Assembly (NCBI GenBank): GCA_951406725.2 | Contig: OX597814.1 | Span: 51,832,001 to 51,896,000 of the forward strand | Reading direction: 5' to 3' | Source: Octopus vulgaris | Lineage: Eukaryota | Length of the DNA: 64,000 nucleotides | Shown here: in pieces, positions 1 to 47,683 of the stretch | Numbering within the stretch: the stretch's first letter is position 1 | Layout: the number at the start of each line of letters is the position of its first letter | Notes under the pieces: generated by a model | Told to the model about the DNA's origin: nothing | Database searches by the model: none | What the model saw: only the letters and a program-made list of their open reading frames with translations | Translations under genes and position numbers: made by a program

Positions 1-7
1 CTTATGG

Positions 8-1970
8 CATCATCATCATCATCATCATCGTTTAACGTCCGCTTTCCATGCTAGCATGGGTTGGACGGTTCAACTGGGGTCTGGCAAGCCCGAAGGCTGC
101 ACCAGGCCAGTCAGATCTGGCAGTGTTTCTACAGCTGGATGCCCTTCCTAACGCCAACCACTCCGAGAGTGTAGTGGGTGATTTTATGTGCCACCGACAC
201 AGGTGCCAGACGAGGCTGGCTGACGGCCACGCTCGGATGGTGTTTTCTTATGTGTCACCGACACAGGTGCCAGACGAGGCTGGCGGACGGCCAAGCTCGG
301 ATGGTGTTTGTTACGTGCCCTCAGCATGGAGGCCAGTCGTTGCGGTACTGGCTACGGTCACGTTCGGATGGTTTTCTTATGTGCCACTGGCACTGGTACC
401 ACAAGGATACAAATTCCATTGATGTTCATCTATTTTGATTTGGTTCGATTTGATTTGATTCGATTCGATTCTCACTTGCCTCAACAGGTCTTCACAAGTG
501 TCACAAGAAGGAAGGTATGCACAGGTGGACTGACTACGTCCCAGGTAGGGGCCACGGATTATGGCTTCACTAGTCTTGCCGGGTCTTCTCACGCACAGCA
601 TACTTCCATAGGTCTCGGTCTCTAGTCATTTCCATGGTGAGACCTAACATCCGAAGGTCGTGCTTCACCACCTCGTCCCAGGTTTTCCTGGGTCTACCTC
701 TTCCACGGGTTCCCTCAACTGCTAGGGATTGGCACTTTCTCACACACCTATCTTCATCCATTCTCGCCACATGACCATACCAGCGCAATCGTCTCTCTTG
801 CACACCACAACTGATGCTTCTTAGGTACAACATTTCTCTCAAGGAACTAACGCTCTGTCGAGTAAGTACACTGACATTACACATCCATCGGAGCATACTG
901 GCTTCGTTCCTCACGAGCTTACGCATGTCCTCAGCAGTTACGGCCCATGTTTCACTGCCATGTAGCATAGCTGTTCGTACACATGCATCATACAGTCTGC
1001 CTTTTACTCTGAGCGAGAGGCCTTTAGTCACCAGCAGAGGTAAGAGCTCCCTAAACTTTGCCCTGGCTATTCTTATTCTAGCAGTTACACTTTCAGCGCA
1101 CCCACCCCCACTACTGACTTGGTCACCTAGATAGCGGAAGCTATCAACTACTTCTAGTTTTTCCCCCGGAAAGTGACAGAAGTTGTTTTCTGCAGATTTT
1201 CGGAGGTCAATGCTCCAGAGCATCTGCCACATACAAAAACTATCTTCCCAGTTAGCCTACCTTTGACATTGCTGCACCTCTTATGTGTCCATAGCTTACA
1301 CTGGGTACATCTTATAGAGTTTCTACCTACACCTTTTCTACAGATCGAGCAGGGCCATCTTCCTGAGGATATTTGTGGATTGTCTACCTTTCTACTTATT
1401 AGTACTTTGGTTTTAGCTAGGTTGACTCTAAGGTCCCTCGATTCTAAACCCTCCTTCCACACCTGGAACTTCTCCAGTTCTGATAGTGACTCAGCAATTA
1501 GAGCGAGGTCGTCAGCATAGAGGAGCTCCCAGGGGCAACCTGTCTTGAATTCCTCCACAATTGCCTGGAGGACTATGATAAATAGGAGGGGGCTGAGTAC
1601 TGAACCCTGGTGGACCCCAACCTCTACTTTGAATTCTTCTGTGTACATGTTGCCAACTCTAACCTTACTTACGGCATCTCTGTACATGGCTTGCACAGCC
1701 CTCACCAGCCATTCATCTATCCCTAGTTTCCTCATTGACCACCAGATGAGGGATCGGGGGACCCTATCAAAGGCTTTCTCCATGTCAACGAAAGCCAGGT
1801 ACAGTGTCTTATCTTTGGCTAGGTATTTCTCCTGCAGCTGCCTTACCAGGAATATAGCATCAGTGGTGCTTTTCCCTGGGACAAACCCAAACTGCATCTC
1901 ATCTAAACTAACTCTCTCTCTAATTAGTTGGGCTATGACCCTCTCCGTAACCTTCATTACCTGATCCAAC
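8..1970 (-). mobile_element. 5'-truncated RTE-clade LINE (RT + Cys-rich region + 3'UTR with (GAT)n tail), in an intron of the KEN-domain gene
   Basis: ORF 1154-2116(-) has RT motifs QFGFVPGKSTTDAIF, AFVDMEKAFDRV, GVHQGSVLSPLLF and LYADDL. It continues by frameshift into ORF 570-1232(-) (FRYLGDQV, RRLRWYGHVARM, RGRPRKTW), typical of the RTE C-terminus. The (CAT)n run at about 8-28 is the 3' tail. Homology stops near 1970 (LDQVMKVTER). Confidence 0.93.
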
Positions 1971-2373
1971 ATACTTTTGTTAATTGTTTTAGGCACTATG
2001 TAATTGTGAACAGTTATAGACATCTTCTTGGTCCTTTCATCCTTGGTCCTGGAGAACATTGAGGATGTAACAACTGGATGGAGAGACAGATGCACTAGCA
2101 CTTGGCTGGTACTCATTTACAGCCGTGTTGACTGGAGCGACATGAAATGAAGTGCCTTCTTCAGGGACATAATGTGCTACTTGATCCAGGAATTGAACTG
2201 AAGGTGTTATGATTATGAGCTCAATACTCTAACTACTAGGCCATGCACCTTCATAAGGCTAATAGAATAGTAATCAGTTAGTACTGCCACTACTGTCATT
2301 ATTGTCAGCAATTATGTGTATTTTCAGAGCAGATTTTTTTCCCATTACTAAAAGGGATGGGTAGATTTTCACA

Positions 2374-2728
2374 GGCGTGGCTGTATGATAAGAAGTTAGT
2401 TGCCCAACCACATGGTTCTGGATTCAGCCCCACTGCATGGCACCTTGAGCAAGTGTCTTCTACTATAGCTCTGAGCTAACCAAAGCCTTGTGCGACTGAT
2501 TTCTTGCCTTGATTTTGCGTGATAGTTCCACTTGTTTACAAGTGATAATTGTAAACAAGTGGTGCCCTTCATTTCTAATCTTCTGTCAAAACATGTCTGG
2601 TCAAAGGGAAATATTATCTTACTTGGAATCAGGTGATGTTTGGTGACAGGAGGGGCCTCTGGTCATAGAAAAATCCACTTCAAAAAATTCCATCTGACCC
2701 ATGCAAGCATGGAATAGTGGACGTTAAT
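2374..2728 (+). mobile_element. tRNA-derived SINE (family A: GGCGTGGCTGT...CACCTTGGGCAAGTGTCTTCTACTATAG) with RTE-like tail
   Basis: tRNA-like head and a central core shared with copies at about 10590, 14440, 20915, 24120, 27075 and 44168. Tail CCCATGCAAGCATGGAA..GGACGTTAA resembles the RTE 3' end. Confidence 0.8.
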
Positions 2729-2921
2729 CAAAGGTGAAACAAACATAGCTATTAAATTATCTATTTTTTCCTTTTTATTACTATCCATAACTAGCTAATT
2801 CTTCTTCACCTCTCACATATTTTTCTTACTCATCAGTAGAATTCATTAAGGATGGTGGGATTGCTTTTTACTATGAAGAGTTTCTTACTATCCAAAACTC
2901 AATACCTTTCTTTTTAAATAG

Positions 2922-3005
2922 GCATCCTTACTTTTGGTCAAATCAGCGGAAACTTCAGTTCTTGTTAACTGTTGGAAGTGATATCCTAAATGCTTTGATG
3001 TTACA
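2922..3005 (+). CDS. IRE1/RNase L-like kinase-KEN protein, exon A (xHPYFWSNQRKLQFLLTVGSDILNALML)
   Basis: tttttaaatag acceptor and CA|gtaagt donor. HPYFWS matches the HPFFW kinase-to-KEN junction of IRE1/RNase L. Phase 2 at both ends. Confidence 0.88.
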
Positions 3006-3996
3006 GTAAGTGGATATAGTTCTGTTTTGGTTTATCAACCTTAATTTTATGTTTTCTCAAATACCAAAAATTATCAGACTAAAACTGTGAAAAATCTTGA
3101 GGTGGTTGCTTGACAACTGAGAAATAACATTCAGATTATGCTCAAATCCCATGCTACCATCTTAAAGAAAGGACTCATTAGATAATGTAGTCCATGGTAC
3201 ACTATGCTTGGAAAAAAAAAGATGGGATAGGCATAAGCAAGACACCTTTGATTAATGTTGATCTAAGTCTAACATTGCTAGGATTTTCAATGATTTTTCA
3301 CTCATAGCTGTGCTTCAATTACTGACATTGAGAATTTCAGTAACAGCAATATATGCTTAAAGGAAAATGCTATGCTTTAGCAGTAGTGTTTACAAATGGT
3401 GCAGTGAAAATTTGGATGAAGTTATATCAGACATGAGAAAGTCAAACCTATGAAAACACAATCAAGCTATGTTGGAAAGCTGCTGCTATTATGCAACCCA
3501 TTCTGGAATATAAAAACGAACAAAATATCAACAATGATGTTGATGGTACTCAATGTTGATGATGATAAGAACTGAATTAAACATGTTTATGTGGCTTATC
3601 TAGTGGAGTCAGTAATTTTTCAATAGCTGTTCAGTTTTTTCATATATGGTATTGAAGTAGGTGTTTTAAAGTTGTATGCTCTTTCTATTAGGAAATGATA
3701 CTGATATGAATTTTTGAGTAATATAGGCTAAGGCAAGTAAAGTGTTTTATCTAAAAGTAACAAGCTTATGGATGCCTACTGAAGGATTTGATCATCCTTT
3801 TGCTGATGAGACCAGAAATGTATTTTTTCAGCCTTTGTATATTTCTTTTACCATCATACTGAAATTAAAACAATAATGATTTTTTAATTTGTTTGAAATT
3901 TTTTCTAATAACATGCTGTTACAAAATAATTTTATATTGTATTGAAATATCCTCAAGTTAATATACATGGATACTTTTTATATTTTTTTAAATGAG

Positions 3997-4072
3997 AAAA
4001 AACTACAACACTGAAGCCAGCATCATATACTGTCTGAGCATTTGTGACACAATTGGATATTTTAAGAATTGG
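3997..4072 (+). CDS. KEN protein exon B (QKNYNTEASIIYCLSICDTIGYFKNW)
   Basis: T-rich tract plus atgag acceptor (non-optimal GAG) and TGG|gtaaga donor. Its phase 2->0 exactly bridges exons A and C and supplies the conserved KEN Trp. Confidence 0.75.
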
Positions 4073-4202
4073 GTAAGATTTTAGCCTTCATTTATAGTTT
4101 TTTTCTTCTTTCTCTGAGAGAGTTACAGCTTGTCTAAATGTATCTTGCTGAAGTATTTGTTTCTGTTATGCATACACAAAGGCTTTATTTTGATAGCGTT
4201 AC

Positions 4203-4204
<2 letters not shown>

Positions 4205-4237
<33 letters not shown>
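4205..4237. repeat. (TA)n microsatellite
   Basis: Direct observation. Confidence 0.95.
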
Positions 4238-4238
<1 letters not shown>

Positions 4239-5283
4239 CTAAGAACATGTATAAACTTATTCAATAAAACATTCAGTAAACAAACATTAGATGTTAGCAT
4301 GGTAAAATAGTAAACTGTGCACTTTATCCCCTCTATCAGATTGTTATTATTTAACTCCTGGTCAGCTCTTATCTTTCAGATCTAGCAGAGTAGGATTGAT
4401 GATGATGAAGCAATTTTGAGAAAGGTACAAGTTATGTTTGAACAGTGTGTGTTCCATGGAAGGCAATGGATGATATAAATGTACAGAAATATGTGTAAAA
4501 TGCACTACATGCTGTGTTCTGGTTACTTAATAGTCTGACCAGGGAAAAATTCTTATTCCATGCAAAACAGAACCTTCTGTTAAACTTTGCTCCAAGACCC
4601 ACTTTAGGTCAAACTCATGGAAAGAGAGAACAATTGCTCACTGAATAAATTACAGAAAAAGTGCAGATACAAGACATACATAATGACCGGACATAAATCA
4701 TTCACAATACAAATAGGCTATTCTTTGCAATTTTGTTTTTTCTAAGAAATAATCTATAAATCTGATAACAAAAGGTTTTGTTTAATCATAATCATTTGCT
4801 AGGAACTGTTAGTTTTCACAAAATAATGGGCTGAGACATTTTACTTTTATTAAAGCTGACAAAACTGGCAAGAGCGAAAGGTATATATTTGCAAATTTAG
4901 TGAAATTTGTTGATAGGAAAATTGTACTTATAAGCATGTTATTATGCATAAAGGTGAGGAAAAAGATACCGTAACTTTTAGTCTAAAAATGCATTGCCAT
5001 GAAATTGATTTAGTTCAAGATAAGACAAAACTTATAAACCCTGCACTTAGATGGCTAAATATTATTAAATGAATGTTATATAGATGACTATATCAGGAGA
5101 GCATTGTACTATATACTATAACATAACAAGTTCAGCATCTCATTGTTCCAAGATTTTTTCCCTACATTTTTTTTACATTCATAAACGAAATTCTAATCAT
5201 AGATCTGCTGTTTGTGCTATTTCAAAATTTTGGCTTGGTGTCTGTTCAATATAATATTACTTATTTAAATATGACCTTTTCAG

Positions 5284-5399
5284 ATGTCACTTATTGATAA
5301 GATCATCTTAGAAGAATTACAGAAAATCAGACCAATAAGGAATTCAGTGATTGAACTGGTGATCTTCTTATACAACACCTGTATTTTGTATAAACAAAT
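5284..5399 (+). CDS. KEN protein exon C (MSLIDKIILEELQKIRPIRNSVIELVIFLYNTCILYKQ)
   Basis: ccttttcag acceptor and AT|gtaagt donor. Aligns without gaps to IRE1 SVRDLLRAMRNKKHHY. Confidence 0.85.
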
Positions 5400-5619
5400 G
5401 TAAGTGTTTATATACTGTTTATACACAGGATTTATTTCAACCTTAATCCTTTTTAATCTGGCAGTGAATAATCCTTATGTCATTCCCTAATCATTTAATT
5501 TAATTTATTTTAACACCTGTTGTTTTCTATTCCTGTCGGAGTTAGGTGAGTTTTCTAGGTTTGAAGTGTAAAAAATATCTTCCTCAATCTTCCACTTCAT
5601 TAAAAGTCGAAGACTAAGG

Positions 5620-6545
5620 AAGATTCCTTTCATATGAATTGCTTAGTTTTTATATACCCAACTGTCATCTTTCACACACACACACATTTATATTGTATTC
5701 TCTCTTACACACTACAGCTGATTCCTTTTATACACCGCTTTTCTCTCAACTTATTTATTCTCTGTTCATGCACACTGACATTGCACATCCAGCAAAGCAC
5801 ATTCACCTCATTTCTTTCTACCTTTCACACACCATTGCCTATGTTTCACAACCATACAATATCATACTTCGTACACAAGACTTATGCAACCTGCTTTTCA
5901 CTTGGAAAGAGAATCCTTTTGTTGCTAGCAGAAGTAATAACTCGCTGAACCTCTTCTTTCTATCTATTCTTACTCTGGCTATTATAGTTTCAGGACACCT
6001 TCTATTGCTCATTAGGCCATCTAGGTAACAGGAGCTGTCAATTACTACCATCTGAACATTTCAAAGAATTCATTTCATGAGTGTACTTATTGCTCACTGC
6101 TCCAGTGGATCTGACTCTCCTTTTTGTTAGCCTACTTGTGATCACAGCTCACTTCTTGTGCACCCGTAGTTCAGATCTCTGCGTATTGAGTATGATAACT
6201 TCTCACGTGGCTGTTGAGTTTTTTCTTTTCTTTTCTACCAACTAAAACCTTGGGTTTCGATAGGCTTTCTTTGAGGCCTCTCAGTCCTAAGCTTTGCTTC
6301 CATGTTTGGAATTTCTTCTATAAATATTTGAATTAGCTATGAGAGCTAGATCATTAGTATACAGGAGCTCTCACACAATCAATCTTAAACTCTTCTGTTA
6401 TGGCCTAGAGAACTATAACAAACAGGAGGTGATTGGAAAGAATGCTCTGATGGCTACCTATCTATACTCTAAACTCTTCATTTAACGTGTCGTTAACTCT
6501 CACCTTGCTAGTGAAATCTCTGTATTTGGCTTCCATGGCTCTCAT
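5620..6545 (-). mobile_element. Degraded RTE LINE fragment
   Basis: The minus strand reads ELLYTNDLA near 6345-6370 and ..IIARVRIDRKK..LLATKGFSFQVKSRL.., paralleling the RTE at 570-1970. Many stops and frameshifts. Confidence 0.8.
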
Positions 6546-9086
6546 AAGCCATTTATTTGCACATAGTTGAATTATTCATCTTTACCCACACTTGGCACCA
6601 TAAATACATGTACCTGGGTACATGTCTGTGAGTCTGTCTGAGAGTGTGTATTTGCATGGATGTGACTGTGTGCATTTGTGTATCCATTCTCTGTGTGTGT
6701 CTGTATTCCTGTGTTTGGCATCTTGGTCGAGTATGTGTGAACATGCAAGCTTTTTATATGTGTGTGTATGTATGTATGACTAGGTGTACACGTGTATGTG
6801 TGTGTGTCCATACACATCTTTGGTGTAGTCTTTTTTGCCTTGTTTATAGGTGCAGGCATAGGTGTTTGGTAAGAGGTTTGCTTCCAACTACATGTTTCCA
6901 GACCTTTTATCATGTTGTGTGTGTGTATGGTTGTTTATATTCCACATTATCACATGACATTGAGCAAAATGATGATGCTGTGTTTAAATTCTCTGTAAGC
7001 AGTATTTCCTGTTGCTCTGTACTTTTGAAGACCAGTAGAGTTAAACAAATATTTCCTTACTTGAAGCAGCTAAGAATTGGCTTCAGAGAGGATTGTTAAA
7101 TACTGCAACAGTTTGTCTCTCTCTCTCTAACTCATGCCAGCATAGAAAACAAACTTAAAACCAATGAGCAAATACACACACTAAAACACACATATATCCA
7201 TTTATGTGTGTGTGTGTTTGTATAATATACTTACATATACATACGTGGACATTAAATGATGATGATTTCATATATATATATATGTTTATTTATATGTGGT
7301 GATACATATCTATATGTGGAAGGTGTGTGTGTATGAATATATATGGGTCTAACCCATGCCAACATCAAATATGGATGTTAAATTGTGATGATTATAATGG
7401 TCTAGGTTAATTACAATGTTGAAAAAGAGATAACTATAACAATCTGAGTCCTGTCCAGCCTATACAAGCATGAAAAAAAACCATGTAAAATGATGTTGTT
7501 GTTGGTTGTGGTGTTGATGAAGATGATCATACGAATGTTATAGAAGAAATAAATAGCTCTCAGCTCTTGTTATCTCTCACTTTGAAATATTGTGAATGAC
7601 TTCAAAAGAACTATGTTAAAATGCGAGAAATATTCACAGATAAACAGCTGTTGGTTATCCTGTTGAATCATTGAAGAATTCAACAGGGAAATTCATTAGA
7701 ACTTCCAGTATATAGATTGTAGAAATATCAAATATTTCTCTCTTGTTTAGTTTCAGATTAACCCTTATCTGAGAAGACCCATTCCAGCTGTGACCATCCT
7801 GTATTATTTGTAGACCTAGGAATAGTTTTATGCTTACTTCCATCTTCGATGTAATACATTGTGATTTGAGGGAAATTTTGGCTTTTATGTATTGCAGTTG
7901 TTTAGCCCCAGGTTGGTCCAGATGTGGAAGACATGATCAAAGATATTCTGGGTAGTGAGCATCTCATCTGCTCATGCACTGCTTGATGTCCCATTGCAAC
8001 ACATTTCAGAGAAGCTTGTTTGATACAGTTATCTATATCTTTCCGGAACTATGGACCACATTATCTAATGTGCTTTCTTATTCAGGATAGTAGGGAATGA
8101 TTTGAGGGAGACTTGGGTGCTATCTCTAATGAGGTGAGTGACCATGTAAAGGCTTCCTCATTGGTTCATTTCAAATTAACGTATCAACTGATGCTGTTGA
8201 CATTGTTGTTTTTGTTAGTGTTATTGTTGTTTAATCCCAAGTCAACCCTGAATTGATCATATCTATTATCGAATACATTTATTCCAGCCGTAGTCATTTT
8301 GTCTTTCCTTGTACAGGCATAGTATATCATGAATTAAATTATCTAATGTCAACATTTAAGACAGTAGGATAATGTTTGAGATAGATTTGGCTGCTATTTC
8401 TAATGAGATGCATGATCTTGTACTTTTTCTTTGATTCATAGTATGAGATGTATTTAAAGAGAGTTCTAAAGAACTTTTGTACTCTGAATTCCATGGTTCC
8501 AGAAAGAAGTAGCTCACTGTATCAATAGGACTTTTCCTAAATGTGATGTGTTGAAATGGGACACCATGTGGTGCATTAGCAGATGAGATATATATTGTTA
8601 GTTATTAGCTAGTCCAAGTCTGTCGTGAATTGAGCAGACTTATGGTGAAAAACTTTCCAACCATGACCATATATTCTTATAATCTCAGGGTAGTTTGGGA
8701 CTATGTTACACATATCATTTCTTTCTTTAAGACGAAAGAAAATTCTTTGGTTGCTATTTCCTGCTGATTCAGTGACTGCACTGAGGACCCTTGATAGGAT
8801 TCATGTGGGGTATTCAGGCTGAACAGAACTTCAGCGCCATGAATCTTCTTTTTTTTTTCTTCAGAGTGGAACATGCATAGATATACATGTTTATATTCTA
8901 TATTTGTTATTGCTTGGGTGAAATGGTGTATCCTTATTCAAAATATGACCTGTCACTTTGGGCTTTCAAAATCCCTAAAGTTTGTCAACAGGTAGTGCAA
9001 CCAGCTGTAAAATATTGCCTAAAATAACTCTCCATCCAATCCTTGCTAGTATGATCTAAAAACAGATGTTAAATGAATGAATAAAC

Positions 9087-9126
<40 letters not shown>

Positions 9127-9136
9127 TTACATAGAA

Positions 9137-9352
9137 ATCATCATTATTTAACATCCACTTTCCATGCTGGTATGATTTGGATTGTTTGACAGGATCTGGC
9201 AAACTATGGCAGTGTTGGGCTCCAATGTCAGCTTTGGAATGGTTTTTAGGGTTGGATGTTTCTCCTAGTGCCAACCACTTAATAGAGTGTATTGGGTGCT
9301 TCTTTTTCTTTTTATGCCACTGGCACTAGTGGGGTTGCCAAGTAATTTGCAA
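9137..9352 (-). mobile_element. RTE-3'-tail-type short repeat
   Basis: atcatcatt..ttaacatccactttccatgctgg..gccaaccact.. matches the 3' end of the RTE at 8-400. Confidence 0.7.
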
Positions 9353-9510
9353 GACAGAAGAACAAGGAGACAAAAAATAAAAAGCTTCCACTACTAAATG
9401 GGAAATATTTGAGAGGGGAAGATGGGTTTATGCTAGATGCTGGAAGGCTAAAATAAGATAGAGAGTCAAGCATAGGTGTCTTGCTACACAGGAGATGCAT
9501 GGCTAACCAC

Positions 9511-9544
<34 letters not shown>

Positions 9545-10589
9545 GGATGGGAGTAGTTGAAGAGATAAAGGAAATTTGTGATGGTGAGCCAGAGCAAACT
9601 CTCAGGGTACAAGAAGGTGAGCATTAGAGAAGATGCAGACAGTTAGTCAAGGGAGGGGAGAGGGATGCTTTCAACAATCACCTACTTTTGTACTGAAGGT
9701 ACAAAAGTAGGTGATTGGTGGAAATATTGTGAGCAGGGAGAATGATAAGAAATGGAAGTGGTTCCAGGAAGGAGAGGATGAGGGATGGAGGTAACCAGAG
9801 GAGAAGGGTGTAAAATATGCCAATTTGGCTTTCGGGTAGTTACAGTAGTCGAGTTGTGTCAAGATAGGGGAGTGGTAGGTGTTAGGATGAGATCTGGGGG
9901 GAAATGCTTGATGGAGCAGAAAGAGAGGAGAAGGTTAGGGCCTGAGGGATGGAGGAAGAGAGAGGTAGATGGGTCAATAGAAAAATAAAGACAGGATATA
10001 ACTGTCTATTTGTTGGAGGTATCCTTCTTCATGCATAATGATTTTTGGTTGCATCACCGATTTGTTAATTCTTCTCTGCTAACTTGATGCTGACTGGGCA
10101 TTCTCTCAATCTCTGTATTCATTTTTGCAAGCTGAGTGGATTGGAGCAATATAAAATAAATGGACTTGCCTATGGATACAACATACCACTTGGACTAGGA
10201 ATTAACCCCCACAGCCTTATGATTGATATAAGCAGTATGTTGGTGGAGAGGTAAGGAAGGTGTACAGCTGCTGATGAGACTCCAAGCAAAGTTGAAATGT
10301 GTAGCATAAACAGCTGTTCTTTCTTTTTCTGTCCTTCAACATATTGTGTACATAGACACGATTTCATCTATTGTAACATAGTGTTGAATATAAGTCTATT
10401 GACCCGTTCTGTTCATTATAGCAACACTGTTAACACACCAGTAGTTTAAAGTAATCAATGTCACCATATTTCATTTAGATGGCATTGATGATGACATGAT
10501 GAATTGATATCTATACTCACACACTGACAAATACATACTTGCATACATACATAATCAATAAACCACTTAGTCAGTCACTTTACTTCTAC

Positions 10590-10712
10590 CATTTTCTCTT
10601 ACAAAGCTTTGGATGGCCTGGGGCTACAATTGAAGACATTTTTCCAAGATGCCATGCAGTGAGACTGGACCCAAAATTGTGTTTGAGAAGTGAATTTCTT
10701 AACCACACAGCC
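10590..10712 (-). mobile_element. SINE family A fragment
   Basis: Reverse complement of the head at 2374 (gaagaca..ccaagatgccatgcagt..aaccacacagcca). Confidence 0.65.
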
Positions 10713-11400
10713 AGTCTGCACTTAATTGTTTGTGTGTATATGTGCTCTTTAGTTTGTTTTAGTAATCACAGCTAAAGCCATGGTGGATCATTATCTTCAA
10801 AGTTGATTGTCATATGCCTTTTGTGTTATCTTTGCATAAATTCAAGGGCCCAATGCCTTTGGTTTCTTAGTGTTTGTGGTATCACTGGAGATTGCTCAAT
10901 AGTTATCTCTTGTTACTGCTATTTCTATTGTTAGTAAAATCCAGCATTATTTATATAAAATTGTAATACATTGCTATAGCGCTCTCACTCTCTCTCACTT
11001 TTATGACTTGACCCATTGGTTTAATGTCTCTGCAGTGACTTTTTTCTAAAATGTCTCCTTTGCTCTTGTAGCCATTCATGATGATGCTATTATACTAAAT
11101 ATTAGTGATAGCATCTTCCTACACTACTTGATTGCCATATGAGTAACCAGTGCATGCCCTATATTGCTGGGGAGTATCTATGTTAGTCCAGCAGTTTTTC
11201 CTGTCTTCATATCCTTAATGGTAATCAACTGCAGTAGCTGATCCTTTTTTATGGATCCACTTTGGGTACCTACATCCACTCCCACCACACACACATTTCC
11301 CCTATTCGGTAACCCTTCATTGTATTGTTTTCCAGCCTCTTCTTTCTCAGCACCAGTCAAAGTAAATTAGCTGTTATTGGCAGAATTCTGCTTTATGCAT

Positions 11401-11822
11401 GGCATATAACCCCTCATAACTTTTTTATTTTGGGGAATTTGCAGAAAATGTTTGCAAATTTGTATTCTACACACAGGAAATCATAGAACTATGCAAAAAG
11501 AAATTAAAAAAAATTTTTCCAACTTTTTTTTTAGAAATCACAGTTTAAAATACAATCTGAATTTTTGGTGTAAATCACAGCAATAGACCGTTAAATGTGT
11601 TCATGGGGAAAAAGATATTGAAAGACATCAATACATCAGACTGACAAACAAACAAGGATGGTATGAGGTAGTTGTGAGATGTGCTAAAAATAACAGCAAA
11701 TCACGCAAAAATTTTTGTTTTGTTTTTCCATAGTCATATGGTTTCCCTTGTTTAGAACACAAATTTGCAAAGATTTTCTGCAAATTCCAAAAAATAAAAT
11801 AACTAATGAGGGGTTATATGCC
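11401..11822. mobile_element. MITE / non-autonomous DNA transposon with about 100-bp imperfect TIRs
   Basis: GGCATATAACCCCTCAT...GGAATTTGCAGAAAAT..TTTGCAAATTTGT at the left is the reverse complement of ACAAATTTGCAAAGATTTTCTGCAAATTCC...ATGAGGGGTTATATGCC at the right. Confidence 0.85.
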
Positions 11823-12581
11823 TTAAATATTCCACCCTGCTGTCATCCATCTGCACTTTTTGCTGACCACAATCTGATTTAACTTGACACCTCACATATC
11901 TGGCTCTCATGGTATAGAACATTGTAAACCTCTTGCTCTTGGCTGCCCCACTCGCTGTGCATACTTAATGTCTAGCTTCTCTTCTAGCTATTTGATAGTA
12001 GTTCTTACTCTCCATCTTACCATCATTCTTTCTGGGCCTGTCTCTTAGCTTTTATGACTTATTGTTCAACCACCGTACTACCTTCCACCTGTATGATATT
12101 GGGGTGTATTTATATATATATATTTCTCTCTTTACCTCCTCTCTTATGTGTGTGTATGCTGCATTGGTTTTGTGTGTGCATGTGTGTAAATTTTTAGCTC
12201 AGTAATAAAAATATATGTAAATGCAATGTATAAGAATCCAAATCAGTGAAAATTTTAAAAACATTCACTGAAAGCATCTAAGCTTTGTACATAGGAAATT
12301 GGATTAGTTAACACATGTGTAATGTGTTGAATTCTTAAAATACATTGGGAGCAAAGGTGAATGAAAAAAAGAATTCAAATCAAGGAATAAAATTGCAAAA
12401 GACAGCTGTCACACTCAATTGGGATTTAATAATTAAATTCCTTTCCAAAATTTGTTGTATCTATTCAGTTTTCTATTATTATCTTTGAAAAATTGCCCCC
12501 TGATAGTTATTGTAGTAATTATATAAGTATTGTCATATGAATATTATAATACTTTTTTAAAATGATCTTTAATATCTTTAG

Positions 12582-12720
12582 GAGTCAAGAAGTCAAAGAT
12601 ATCCTGGGTGAACCTTTCAATTATTTTCTTAAAAAATTTCCCAAGTTATTTCAAGTAATTTTTCATGTGATTGGAAAATCGAACCATAGACATCGAAACA
12701 TCTACAGGATATTTTATTAA
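12582..12720 (+). CDS. KEN protein terminal exon D (MSQEVKDILGEPFNYFLKKFPKLFQVIFHVIGKSNHRHRNIYRIFY*)
   Basis: atatctttag acceptor, and phase 2 joins exon C (AT|G = Met). Matches the KEN C-terminus (IRE1 EVRETLG..YFTSRFPHLL..YY; RNase L IGDPSLYFQKTFPDL). TAA at 12718-12720. Confidence 0.88.
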
Positions 12721-12918
12721 TTAAATTACAAGGATTATATTTCCTCTATTTTATATGCATATTTACACTCTATATAATCAAAAGAACGAGAAAGAACAAT
12801 CGTGAGAAAAAAATTTTATGGAAAATTATTAAAAATTATATAAAAAAAAAAAAGATATATATTTCATGTAACGTTTTTAAAAAGAATTTTGATAAAATTT
12901 ATACGTATTCAGAAAACT

Positions 12919-13014
12919 AATAAAAGAATATTATAAAGTATCTTTATTTATTCATTTATTTAATAAAGAAGATTACTTGAAAAATTTCTTTGGCTTCTTT
13001 GACATTTTAATAAA
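12919..13014 (+). promoter_or_regulatory. Candidate polyadenylation signals of the KEN gene
   Basis: AATAAA at about 12919, 12962 and 13009, 200-290 nt after the stop. The AT-rich context weakens this. Confidence 0.4.
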
Positions 13015-13351
13015 CTCAATAATACTTTTAATAAAAATCTTTTAATTAGTCAAAAGTTAAACAGCCACAAGAGAAATTTTTTTTAAAATCCTGTTGTTTT
13101 AGCCCAGCACAGAATCAATGATATTGAAAATGATGGAATAAGAGCCAGTGCTATTATAATGCTAAGTCTTCTGCTAAATCGACACCATTTAGTGCATTGC
13201 ATGGTTGCTGTTAATGATATTAAAGATAAAATTTGTATTAGTTAAAAGGAAAAAATAAATAAAAATAAAAATCGGTTTATACTATACACAATTTAAACAT
13301 GTGATATTTACAGTTCTGTATTTAGGAGATGAGGAATTATTTACATTTGAT

Positions 13352-16779: not shown

Positions 16780-17450
16780 TGAATGGAATTATTGTGTACA
16801 GTGCTCCGGTGCACTACAACTTATCAAAGGTGCATGTATAGTACATAGAATTATGTACAAATATCAGGAAAGTGAACAGTGTATGAGTCATGATATACAT
16901 GTGTGCATGCATATGGAGTGGGGTGATATCAGGTGTGGTGTTGGCCAATTTCAGAAAGCATGGAGGTTTTAAAGGATGCAATGTTATAGCAGCTAACAAC
17001 CAATGCAGGTAATTTATTCCATGCTTCAGCAACTCTGAGAATGAAAAATGTTTCCAAAAGTCATGGAAGCTGTGCTGTTTTCTGACTTTGTAGGCATGCC
17101 CATGTGCATTAGACATTGGAATTCAGAGTTGTTGTAGGCACAATTGTTAATAATTTTGTGGGTGCCAGGTGTCAGAGCTTCAATGTATCCATGCCCAGAA
17201 TGTAGTAGATGCCTGATGGAGGGTATTTGCTTGGTTGCATGTCTCTGAACAGTTTCCAGGAAGTCAATGTTCAGAGCAAGATAGGGGTTCCAGACTGGTG
17301 ATGCAAATTCCAAGTTTGGCTGCACCATGGCCATATACAGCCTTAAATAGATCGCTGAAGAGTGGCTGACAAAGGTCTTGTTGAGTGATGCCAAGATACC
17401 CTCAGCCTTCTTGACAATTTTAGAGACATGCTTTGTCCAGAGTAAATTGC
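16780..17450 (-). mobile_element. CR1-clade LINE 3' fragment
   Basis: ORF 17026-17394(-) reads LYMAMVQPNLEFASPVWNPYL..IDFLETVQRHATKQIP, the typical CR1/L2 ORF2 C-terminus. A related + strand remnant lies at about 33730-34175. Confidence 0.85.
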
Positions 17451-17559
17451 TTCTGTCAAGTTTTCCCGTCTTATTTGACTTGCCTCTGTTCTTGCTACAA
17501 TTTTGCTTTTCTTACAACCCTTATGCATTTCATTAACACTTGGTAACATAATTCTTTCT

Positions 17560-45692: not shown

Positions 45693-47683
45693 CCCTTTTA
45701 AAATGGTTGACATAAATTTACACATGCAACGTACATGCTTTAAATTGGTTGACATAATTATACACTGCCTGACTGAGAACCTATTGCCATATTAGTGGTC
45801 CATCTGCCAACAAATAGGCCGATTAGATGAAAATATTTACAACCTGATAGGCTGGTCATGCCACTCCGACTGTCAACTTTGTTATCGTGTCCTGTTTAGT
45901 CAAATTTATGGTCATGGTGTCCTACCACTCCAGCTCCATCAACTTTGTTGTCGTGTCCCCTTTAGTTGAATTTATGGTTATCGCACCCTACCACTTTGAC
46001 TCCATCAACTTCCTCGTCACACCCTGTTTCATTGAATTTATGATCATCACACCAAGGTCCACTACCTCACCAGTTGTTTCTTCCGGTTCAGACGATGACC
46101 CAGAGAGTGAGTATTTTCCTAATTCAGAATCAGATGATTTCAATAGCGATGATGATATTCTGGTTAATCAAAGGTACAGTGAATGGCCCTGGACAACAGA
46201 ATGTCATGTGACGAACGAGAGGCAATTTCATCTGATGGCATGGATTTACTAGTATGCCTGGCATAAAAGCAAACCTTGGACATGGAAGTTCGCCATTGGA
46301 AATCTTTCACAAGTTTTTGACAGATGAAATGTTCCAATATATAGTGAATGAAATGAATGACTATGCTGAAAACCACCCCCAGCATGTCAGACCTGGGCAT
46401 GGCAATGATTGGTTTCCAACCACAGGGGACAAAATCAAAGTTCTTCTGATACTAATGGGCATCGTAAAGAAACCAACCCTGGTGTCATATTGGAATCAGG
46501 ATCCAGCCACATTGACACCTTTCTTTCCAGAAAAGATGTCACATGATCAATTTTTGGTGCTTCTTCGAAATGTACATTTCAACTTGGGTGAGAACCAGGA
46601 TGACAGGCTGCACAAAATACGCCCTATCATTGATGAAGTAGCTGAAAGTTTCAGAACAGTGTATGTCCCCACACAGGACATTTATACAGATGAGAGTTTG
46701 TGGAAATTCAAGGGAAGGCTCTGATTCAAACAATACAACCTGACCAAACATGCCTGCTCTGGAGTTAAGGTTTATAAAGTATGCCAAGTCAACTGGCTGA
46801 GCCTGTGGGTACACATGGAATTACAAAATCTACACTTGTCAGGACAGATTGGATCTTCCAGTGTCTACTCTAGTGTCAACTGATGTATTGTCACAGAATG
46901 AAAACTTGTTTGACAAAGGCTACAATATTTATATGAATGACTGGTTTTCCAGTCCAGACTTCTTCCTGCAGCTGAAGCAAGGAGGACTAATGCCTATGGG
47001 ACTGTGAGGACACATAGGAAAAACATGCCACCCAATCTTCACAAGATAAAACATCAAAAGGGAGAAACAGCATACCAATGCACCAGCATTTTTATTCTAG
47101 TGTGGCATGACATGAAAAACGTCTGCATGTTATCCACAATGCATTCTGCAAGCATGAAGGACACTAGAAAAGAAGATGTGGAATAATGTCATAATGAAAC
47201 CTAGTGTAGTTGTTTCATACAATGAAGGGATGGGCAGGGGTTGATTGCTCAGATCAGCTGGCGATGACACACAAATCAGTGAGAAAATTTGTGAAATGGT
47301 ACAAAGAAATTTTCTTGTATATAGTTGATGTGTGTCATGAACTTGTGTTTGATTTGGCAGATGCTTGGCGGTGTGGGGGATGGATTGTCATTCAGGACTC
47401 TGTAGCTCCATGAAATGATAGAAGCATCAAACCTGCCAAAAGTACAGAATGCGTGGACATCCCCACACCAGACTCTCTCTTCACTGCATGGTGAAGAGAC
47501 ATGGACATTTTCCAAGACTGTTTCCCCTTAACGTCAAGAAGATAAACGTTTCAAGGATATGCACAGTATGTGAAGTAAAAGGGAAAGTAGACACCATTGT
47601 TCACAATGTGATATGCCAGTGTGTGTGATTACTATCAATGCAACCAAGTTGCTTGATAAAAAAAAATAACCATTGTCATGGGG
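45693..47683 (+). mobile_element. piggyBac transposon with disrupted PGBD4-like transposase
   Basis: TTAA|CCC at 45689-45695 and GGG|TTAA at 47681-47687. ORF fragments: acidic N-terminus, SPLEIFHKFLTDEM, MGIVKKP..SYW, DRLHKIRPII, DESLWKFKGRL*FKQY, VCMLSTMH, GVDCSDQL, KWYKEIF. Confidence 0.92.

Follow-up and report, generated by a model that had tools for sequence, protein, structure and literature searches.

The question raised by this locus is whether a gene that has kept the frame of a KEN ribonuclease domain, as found in IRE1 and RNase L, and has lost the catalytic residues encodes a protein with a role of its own, and of what kind. The locus lies in a 64,000-nucleotide stretch of the Octopus vulgaris genome (contig OX597814.1, positions 51832001-51896000, forward strand), referred to below as the window, in which the first-pass annotation described four small phase-compatible exons with intact frame and splice sites as a cryptic, catalytically dead or repurposed KEN gene distinct from the IRE1 orthologue. 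The gene is structurally intact and spliced, its KEN domain has lost the catalytic residues, it belongs to a wider family and its protein is under constraint; it probably encodes a cytosolic double pseudoenzyme, which would serve as a scaffold and would not cleave RNA.

The four exons are the last of 20 (exons 17-20) in an intact gene of 1803 codons on the + strand, which spans approximately 75 kb and has a 5412-nt frame without internal stops, as modelled by tblastn and splice-site prediction with the Octopus sinensis protein as query mapped onto the 150 kb upstream. Exons 1-16, encoding ankyrin repeats, a predicted armadillo (ARM)-like domain, a low-complexity region and a pseudokinase, lie upstream of the window (contig 51770069-51830653), and the window opens with the 3' part of intron 16 (1..2921, +). 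Exon 17 (2922..3005) encodes the end of the kinase (HPYFW) and the first KEN helix (GSDIL), exon 18 (3997..4072) continues the KEN domain as far as the conserved Trp, exon 19 (5284..5399) carries the former RNase active site, and the coding part of exon 20 (12582..12720) supplies the C-terminal KEN helices and the stop codon TAA. All four are + strand exons with AG/GT boundaries and phases that agree, and the acceptor of exon 18 is of an unusual GAG type in an arrangement with which the RefSeq models agree. The spliced peptide corresponds to the C-terminus of the RefSeq proteins XP_036357000.1 of O. sinensis (1 of 137 codons changed) and XP_014775694.1 of Octopus bimaculoides (3 of 137), and a query with exon 20 found RefSeq proteins in both species (LOC118762493 and LOC106873009, respectively) with identical splicing. 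Thus, the term cryptic holds for the O. vulgaris assembly, whose own model (CAI9715102.1) omits exons 18-19, and not for RefSeq, where the gene is already modelled in the other two species, albeit as uncharacterised. A search of the O. vulgaris genome with exon 19 gave a single match, to itself. The gene model also contains a GC-AG intron, with the donor of exon 9 (contig 51804644) as its sole GC donor.

The splice junctions were sought in contigs from four sequencing runs, two of which (X1 and X2) derive from a related organism with introns approximately 5% diverged; the assignment of these runs to RNA is the guess of the search tool, and no run carrying the gene is recorded as RNA. With that qualification the proposed junctions are borne out, as all three joints (3005/3997, 4072/5284 and 5399/12582) are present in contigs of both X1 and X2, and none of them was found in runs X9 and X12. 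Exon 17 is contained without differences in a 4553-base X2 contig, and exon 20 shows no differences in X1. Intron 17 (3006..3996, GT...GAG) has a weak acceptor and is often retained, being spanned by contigs in both X1 and X2, and intron 18 has a depth of 0 in both. Read-through of intron 17 leads to a stop directly after ...ALMLQ, at the cost of most of the KEN domain, and a RefSeq isoform of O. sinensis, also numbered X2, likewise ends at ALMLQ, one of the KEN-truncated isoforms in RefSeq. KEN-less transcripts therefore exist alongside the spliced form, in a ratio that the contigs do not give. The truncated isoform arising from this GAG-acceptor intron may be regulated, or may be degraded by nonsense-mediated decay.

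In yeast Ire1, His1061 and Tyr1043 form the acid-base pair and Arg1056 and Asn1057 hold the phosphate, and the substitution H1061N costs at least 3e5-fold in activity (PMC3149027); the KEN Arg is reported to be necessary (PMC3710099), and human RNase L is inactivated by H672A (PMC10400998). At the positions of IRE1 Tyr892, Arg905, Asn906 and His910 the octopus KEN domain carries Ile, Tyr, Asn and Leu, in each of the six octopus sequences holding the site, as mapped by aligning a family profile to human IRE1 (RTY...RAMRNKKHHY over rqy...lfvyncclhf). The corresponding codons, all in exon 19, are ATA (5335..5337, in an alignment column adjoining a one-residue indel), TAC AAC (5371..5376) and TTG (5386..5388). 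The Arg, Asn and His columns are identical in all four MAFFT modes, in agreement with the replacements that were originally proposed. The R-N-x3-H motif and catalytic Tyr of an active KEN/HEPN RNase are thus absent from the octopus protein, and the site helix contains no replacement His or Arg. A-to-I editing was considered as a rescue and rejected, as it cannot restore His, Arg or Tyr. Additionally, the octopus kinase has HGR for HRD and NYG for DFG, although the beta-3 Lys and the catalytic-loop Asn are kept. With both the kinase and the KEN domain lacking key catalytic residues, the protein is, judged by its sequence, likely to be a double pseudoenzyme.

Recovery of the upstream exons established the order of the domains as ankyrin repeats, a helical ARM-like domain, approximately 900 low-complexity residues, kinase and KEN. 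There are approximately five ankyrin repeats (around residues 90-260), followed by the helical domain (around residues 260-500), which has no Pfam match. Exon 20 was the only one of the four exons to match the Pfam Ribonuc_2-5A profile (PF06479), and alone it remains below the cut-off of 23.3 bits (21.7 bits, E 2.3e-4); the full O. bimaculoides protein exceeds it (32.8 bits), and orthologues reach 45-50 bits. An AlphaFold2 model of the kinase-KEN part (predicted local distance difference test score, pLDDT, 82.8) superimposes on IRE1 (6w39) with Z 34.6 and a root mean square deviation (rmsd) of 2.4 over 354 aligned residues, and on RNase L with Z 28-29 (29.3, rmsd 3.8, 358 aligned). The RNase L alignment spans model residues 1-423, starting at residue 1-5 and taking in the pre-kinase helix; the alignments of IRE1 chains start no earlier than model residue 18-29 and leave this helix uncovered. 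For the helical domain (pLDDT 89) the top structural matches are armadillo-type solenoids, many at Z 11-14 (best 13-14) with none standing out, and Foldseek returned no match at E ≤ 0.001; 'ARM-like' thus denotes the fold class of the modelled domain and no named relative. Proteins of ankyrin-armadillo type score 0.80 in the Atlas, which is taken as a lead only. Pfam and hydropathy analysis revealed no signal peptide, luminal domain or clear transmembrane helix, Pfam placing only ankyrins at the N-terminus: the N-terminal hydropathy maximum is -0.89 versus 2.31 in IRE1, and the best hydrophobic window (1.82, versus 2.32 for the IRE1 transmembrane segment) lies inside the folded helical domain. 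This architecture is in keeping with the view that the gene is not the IRE1 orthologue.

A profile search with the helical domain gave 30 representatives at E ≤ 0.001 among 1.84 billion sequences, ten of which were looked up, and a further profile search added named members from Mytilus, Ostrea, Saccostrea, Argopecten, Solemya, Patella, spiders, scorpions and ticks, and some of the family records are fragments. Ninety kinase-KEN modules were aligned, with nine unrelated kinases and matches covering fewer than 250 profile positions excluded. The HRD Asp is missing in all 36 family kinase modules, each of which has an HG-x catalytic loop. All 16 mollusc-clade sequences other than those of the octopus have Tyr/Tyr/Asn/His at the site (10 named species and further records, many of them near-copies), such that oysters, mussels, scallops and limpets retain the catalytic His, and the Tyr-Asn pair found in the octopus is shared by every member of the mollusc clade. 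Conversely, none of the 11 chelicerate-clade sequences keeps the His, and the site has been lost there in three different ways. In a 26-row tree the molluscs and chelicerates are joined at 98/94 with the octopus within the molluscs (100/99), on an end branch of 1.4 compared with 0.1-0.9 in other molluscs. The tree separates the family from two fungal IRE1s; it is unrooted and includes neither RNase L nor metazoan IRE1. Sequence comparison thus places the octopus gene in an old mollusc-plus-chelicerate family of ankyrin/ARM/pseudokinase/KEN proteins and not as a young octopus paralogue. Since Tyr/Tyr/Asn/His is present in all 16 other mollusc-clade sequences, the Arg-to-Tyr change is old and the Tyr and His losses fall on the octopus line; as no squid, cuttlefish or Nautilus KEN of this family was found in the searches, the His loss is dated just to the line leading to Octopus. 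The degenerate kinase, the old family and the Arg-to-Tyr change shared by all other sampled molluscs had escaped the first reading of the locus. A literature search in which subscription journals were mostly uncovered found no description of the family or locus, and the trees of PMC10400998 may include the clade among the ankyrin-bearing groups that lie outside RNase L. Judging by three divergent carriers of its helical domain (P0046-P0048), the family may reach further than molluscs and chelicerates, and two ENA records (P0012/P0021), which combine a long ankyrin array with an intact kinase and a KEN domain with R-N-x3-H, fall outside the fish and protostome clades as another ankyrin-KEN fusion.

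Among seven other molluscs the KEN domain is the most conserved part of the protein (mean identity 61% versus 43% for the kinase), and the octopus is at approximately 31% to those seven in both. Of the columns invariant in the seven, the octopus keeps 29 of 50 in KEN and 38 of 45 in the kinase (Fisher P 0.007), indicating that change on the octopus line was focused on KEN. Relative to O. bimaculoides, amino acid changes number 2/170 in the ankyrin repeats, 0/240 in the helical domain, 37/879 in the low-complexity region, 3/286 in the kinase and 3/137 in KEN. The three KEN changes compare with approximately 16 expected at an intron divergence of 4.8% (P 8e-5), a rate taken from run X1 that is a floor, as only pieces at least 90% identical were aligned; a KEN domain maintained without its catalytic Tyr, Arg and His, as had been proposed, is thus upheld. 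Exon 19, with 39 of the KEN codons, contains all three changes (P 0.02) and the other 98 codons none; at the DNA level exon 19 differs at 5 of 116 bases, compared with no difference in the 223 bases of exons 17 and 20 combined (P 0.004). The core motifs HPxFW, GSD, W, LxxFxYN and PxxYFLxxFPxLF are retained. Comparison of the sequences thus indicates that the fold of the octopus KEN domain is held and that its active-site face and exon are relaxed and drifting.

How would such a protein work? If it is a scaffold, the ankyrin and ARM-like repeats would recognise a signal or a partner protein, and the pseudokinase-KEN part may form a folded docking or dimerising unit, by analogy with the RNase L pseudokinase, with an output by protein contact and not by cleavage. 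The ancestral molluscan protein would have had a Tyr-Asn-His site, of which the octopus line lost the site and kept the fold. Several points weigh against this reading. The scaffold role is drawn from the architecture of the protein, and the binding of something by KEN itself is its weakest step; the Tyr892 column is sensitive to the alignment, falling on a gap in KEN-only MAFFT runs; and the counts of changes are small and are set against an intron rate that is a floor. Furthermore, the divergence of exon 19 is near the intron rate and the retention of intron 17 takes most of KEN from part of the transcripts, both of which would suit a vestigial KEN domain equally well. Under that alternative the ankyrin, ARM-like and pseudokinase parts work and KEN is kept for packing against the kinase C-lobe, without a binding role and in slow decay. 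The confinement of the KEN changes to exon 19, the KEN-truncated isoforms, the long octopus branch and the three different ways in which chelicerates lost the site all accord with it, yet the 98 unchanged KEN codons outside this exon and the preserved core motifs argue against decay. We regard a vestigial KEN domain as improbable overall, though as an explanation to be taken seriously.

The scaffold reading fares better against the proposal that the protein is a decoy or dominant-negative partner heterodimerising with IRE1, which had been raised at the outset and finds no support here. The closeness of the kinase-KEN fold to IRE1 (Z 34.6) and the still basic charge of the KEN domain (18 K+R versus 10 D+E) would allow such pairing; however, identity to IRE1 is approximately 25%, an endoplasmic reticulum anchor is lacking, the family is old and separate, and the pre-kinase helix aligns to RNase L and not to IRE1 structures. 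Moreover, a dead yeast Ire1 (H1061N) stimulates the wild type approximately tenfold in trans and inhibits at excess (PMC3149027), and the decoy role is accordingly judged unlikely. Slightly less likely still is that the octopus KEN domain cuts RNA through a rewired site composed of Tyr5371, Asn5374 and nearby Tyr and Arg residues: the Asn, the Tyr of the family and the basic surface are indeed kept, but there is no His nearby, editing offers no remedy, and KEN conservation falls on the octopus line. Finally, a decaying pseudogene, to which the single GAG acceptor, the single GC donor and the intron retention might point, is largely refuted by the intact frame, the spliced contigs, the 240 unchanged ARM-like residues and the strong constraint elsewhere, and is scarcely credible.

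Downstream of the stop codon, the putative 3' untranslated region (12721..13035, +) contains candidate polyadenylation signals ATTAAA at 12828 and AATAAA at 12919, 12962, 13009 and 13030; the X2 contig reaches 12853. The window also contains mobile element remains, namely a long interspersed nuclear element (LINE) fragment within intron 16 (570-2116, -; RVT_1, E 5.8e-27), which we take to be of the RTE type, and a piggyBac-type transposase fragment (45851-46724, +; DDE_Tnp_1_7, E 2.6e-29). An open reading frame at 17026-17511 (-) looks by eye like the C-terminal part of a LINE reverse transcriptase, with no Pfam match.

To our knowledge, IRE1 and RNase L are the only characterised KEN nucleases, and the gene would add a third lineage, which is found in molluscs and chelicerates and consists of soluble ankyrin-pseudokinase-KEN proteins. 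The octopus protein would then be a dead control provided by nature and one of the rare cases in which a pseudokinase is combined with a pseudonuclease, and the bivalve and limpet form may be the more interesting lead, as an RNase L-like nuclease, possibly active, whose site is non-canonical in that Tyr stands for the HEPN Arg. With its Tyr, Asn and His invariant, this form raises the question of whether a KEN domain can cleave without the HEPN arginine, and the second question of whether an RNase L-like arm exists in molluscs. It is tentatively proposed, as a doubtful extension, that a cytosolic RNase L-like nuclease, so far undescribed, acts in the stress or immune responses of molluscs and cuts RNA with a Y-N-x3-H site under the control of its ankyrin/ARM repeats and pseudokinase. 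Its nuclease activity would have been lost in the octopus and, separately, in spiders, scorpions and ticks, with the scaffold preserved. If true, this would amount to repeated natural pseudo-nuclease conversions within one family.

Among known systems, IRE1 (ERN1), a transmembrane kinase-RNase of the endoplasmic reticulum, shares the kinase-KEN fold and is the top PDB match in both sequence and structure. The octopus protein differs in its soluble architecture, in the loss of kinase (HGR and NYG, with the Lys kept) and RNase residues and in its separate branch in the tree. The canonical IRE1 of O. vulgaris was not located by protein and pattern searches, in which the candidates checked turned out to be other kinases or to match by chance; such searches perform poorly on split exons (PF06479 failed to detect even the octopus KEN gene) and permit no inference on IRE1 or other KEN paralogues. 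A second comparison is offered by the teleost ankyrin-kinase-KEN proteins ('IRE1-like / ppk4-like'), which share an ankyrin N-terminus, a pre-kinase motif of the W-x-P-x-S-x-R-W type and the kinase-KEN module. Unlike the octopus protein, they retain HRD/DFG in every one of 50 modules and the full Tyr/Arg/Asn/His set in 42 of these; they form a separate clade, and homology between the helical domain and their helical region was not detected (hhalign 3%). The teleost family is expanded, some members having tandem kinase-KEN units (P0011, P0066, P0070-P0111), and these are candidate substitutes for RNase L, which is reported to have been lost in ray-finned fishes (PMC10400998). Non-catalytic HEPN domains such as those of MtlR and Swt1 have lost Rx4-6H and are proposed to be non-catalytic RNA binders, and the KEN motif is listed as approximately 95% conserved (PMC3710099); in the octopus, the degenerate domain is a KEN that follows a pseudokinase, and the portion of PMC3710099 consulted names no such family.

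A further likeness is to RNase L, the vertebrate 2-5A-dependent RNase, which has the same soluble ankyrin-pseudokinase-KEN order and to which the octopus model aligns with its pre-kinase helix included. RNase L proper has been reported from jawed vertebrates only, and several proteins outside RNase L gained ankyrins independently (PMC10400998); OAS1 and RNase L are reported to be absent in Aplysia (PMC9334734), and a search of the O. vulgaris genome with OAS1_C gave no match, with the controls blank too. The pseudokinase of RNase L binds ATP together with two cations and is considered a scaffold for dimerisation (PMC4718504), whereas the octopus protein is without the HRD and DFG aspartates. 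Additionally, its ankyrins are not joined directly to the kinase, as the ARM-like domain and the low-complexity residues intervene, and its KEN catalytic residues are lost, with Leu at the position of the catalytic His (H672). The octopus protein thus resembles a disabled RNase L, yet by these features it is a member of neither RNase L nor IRE1.

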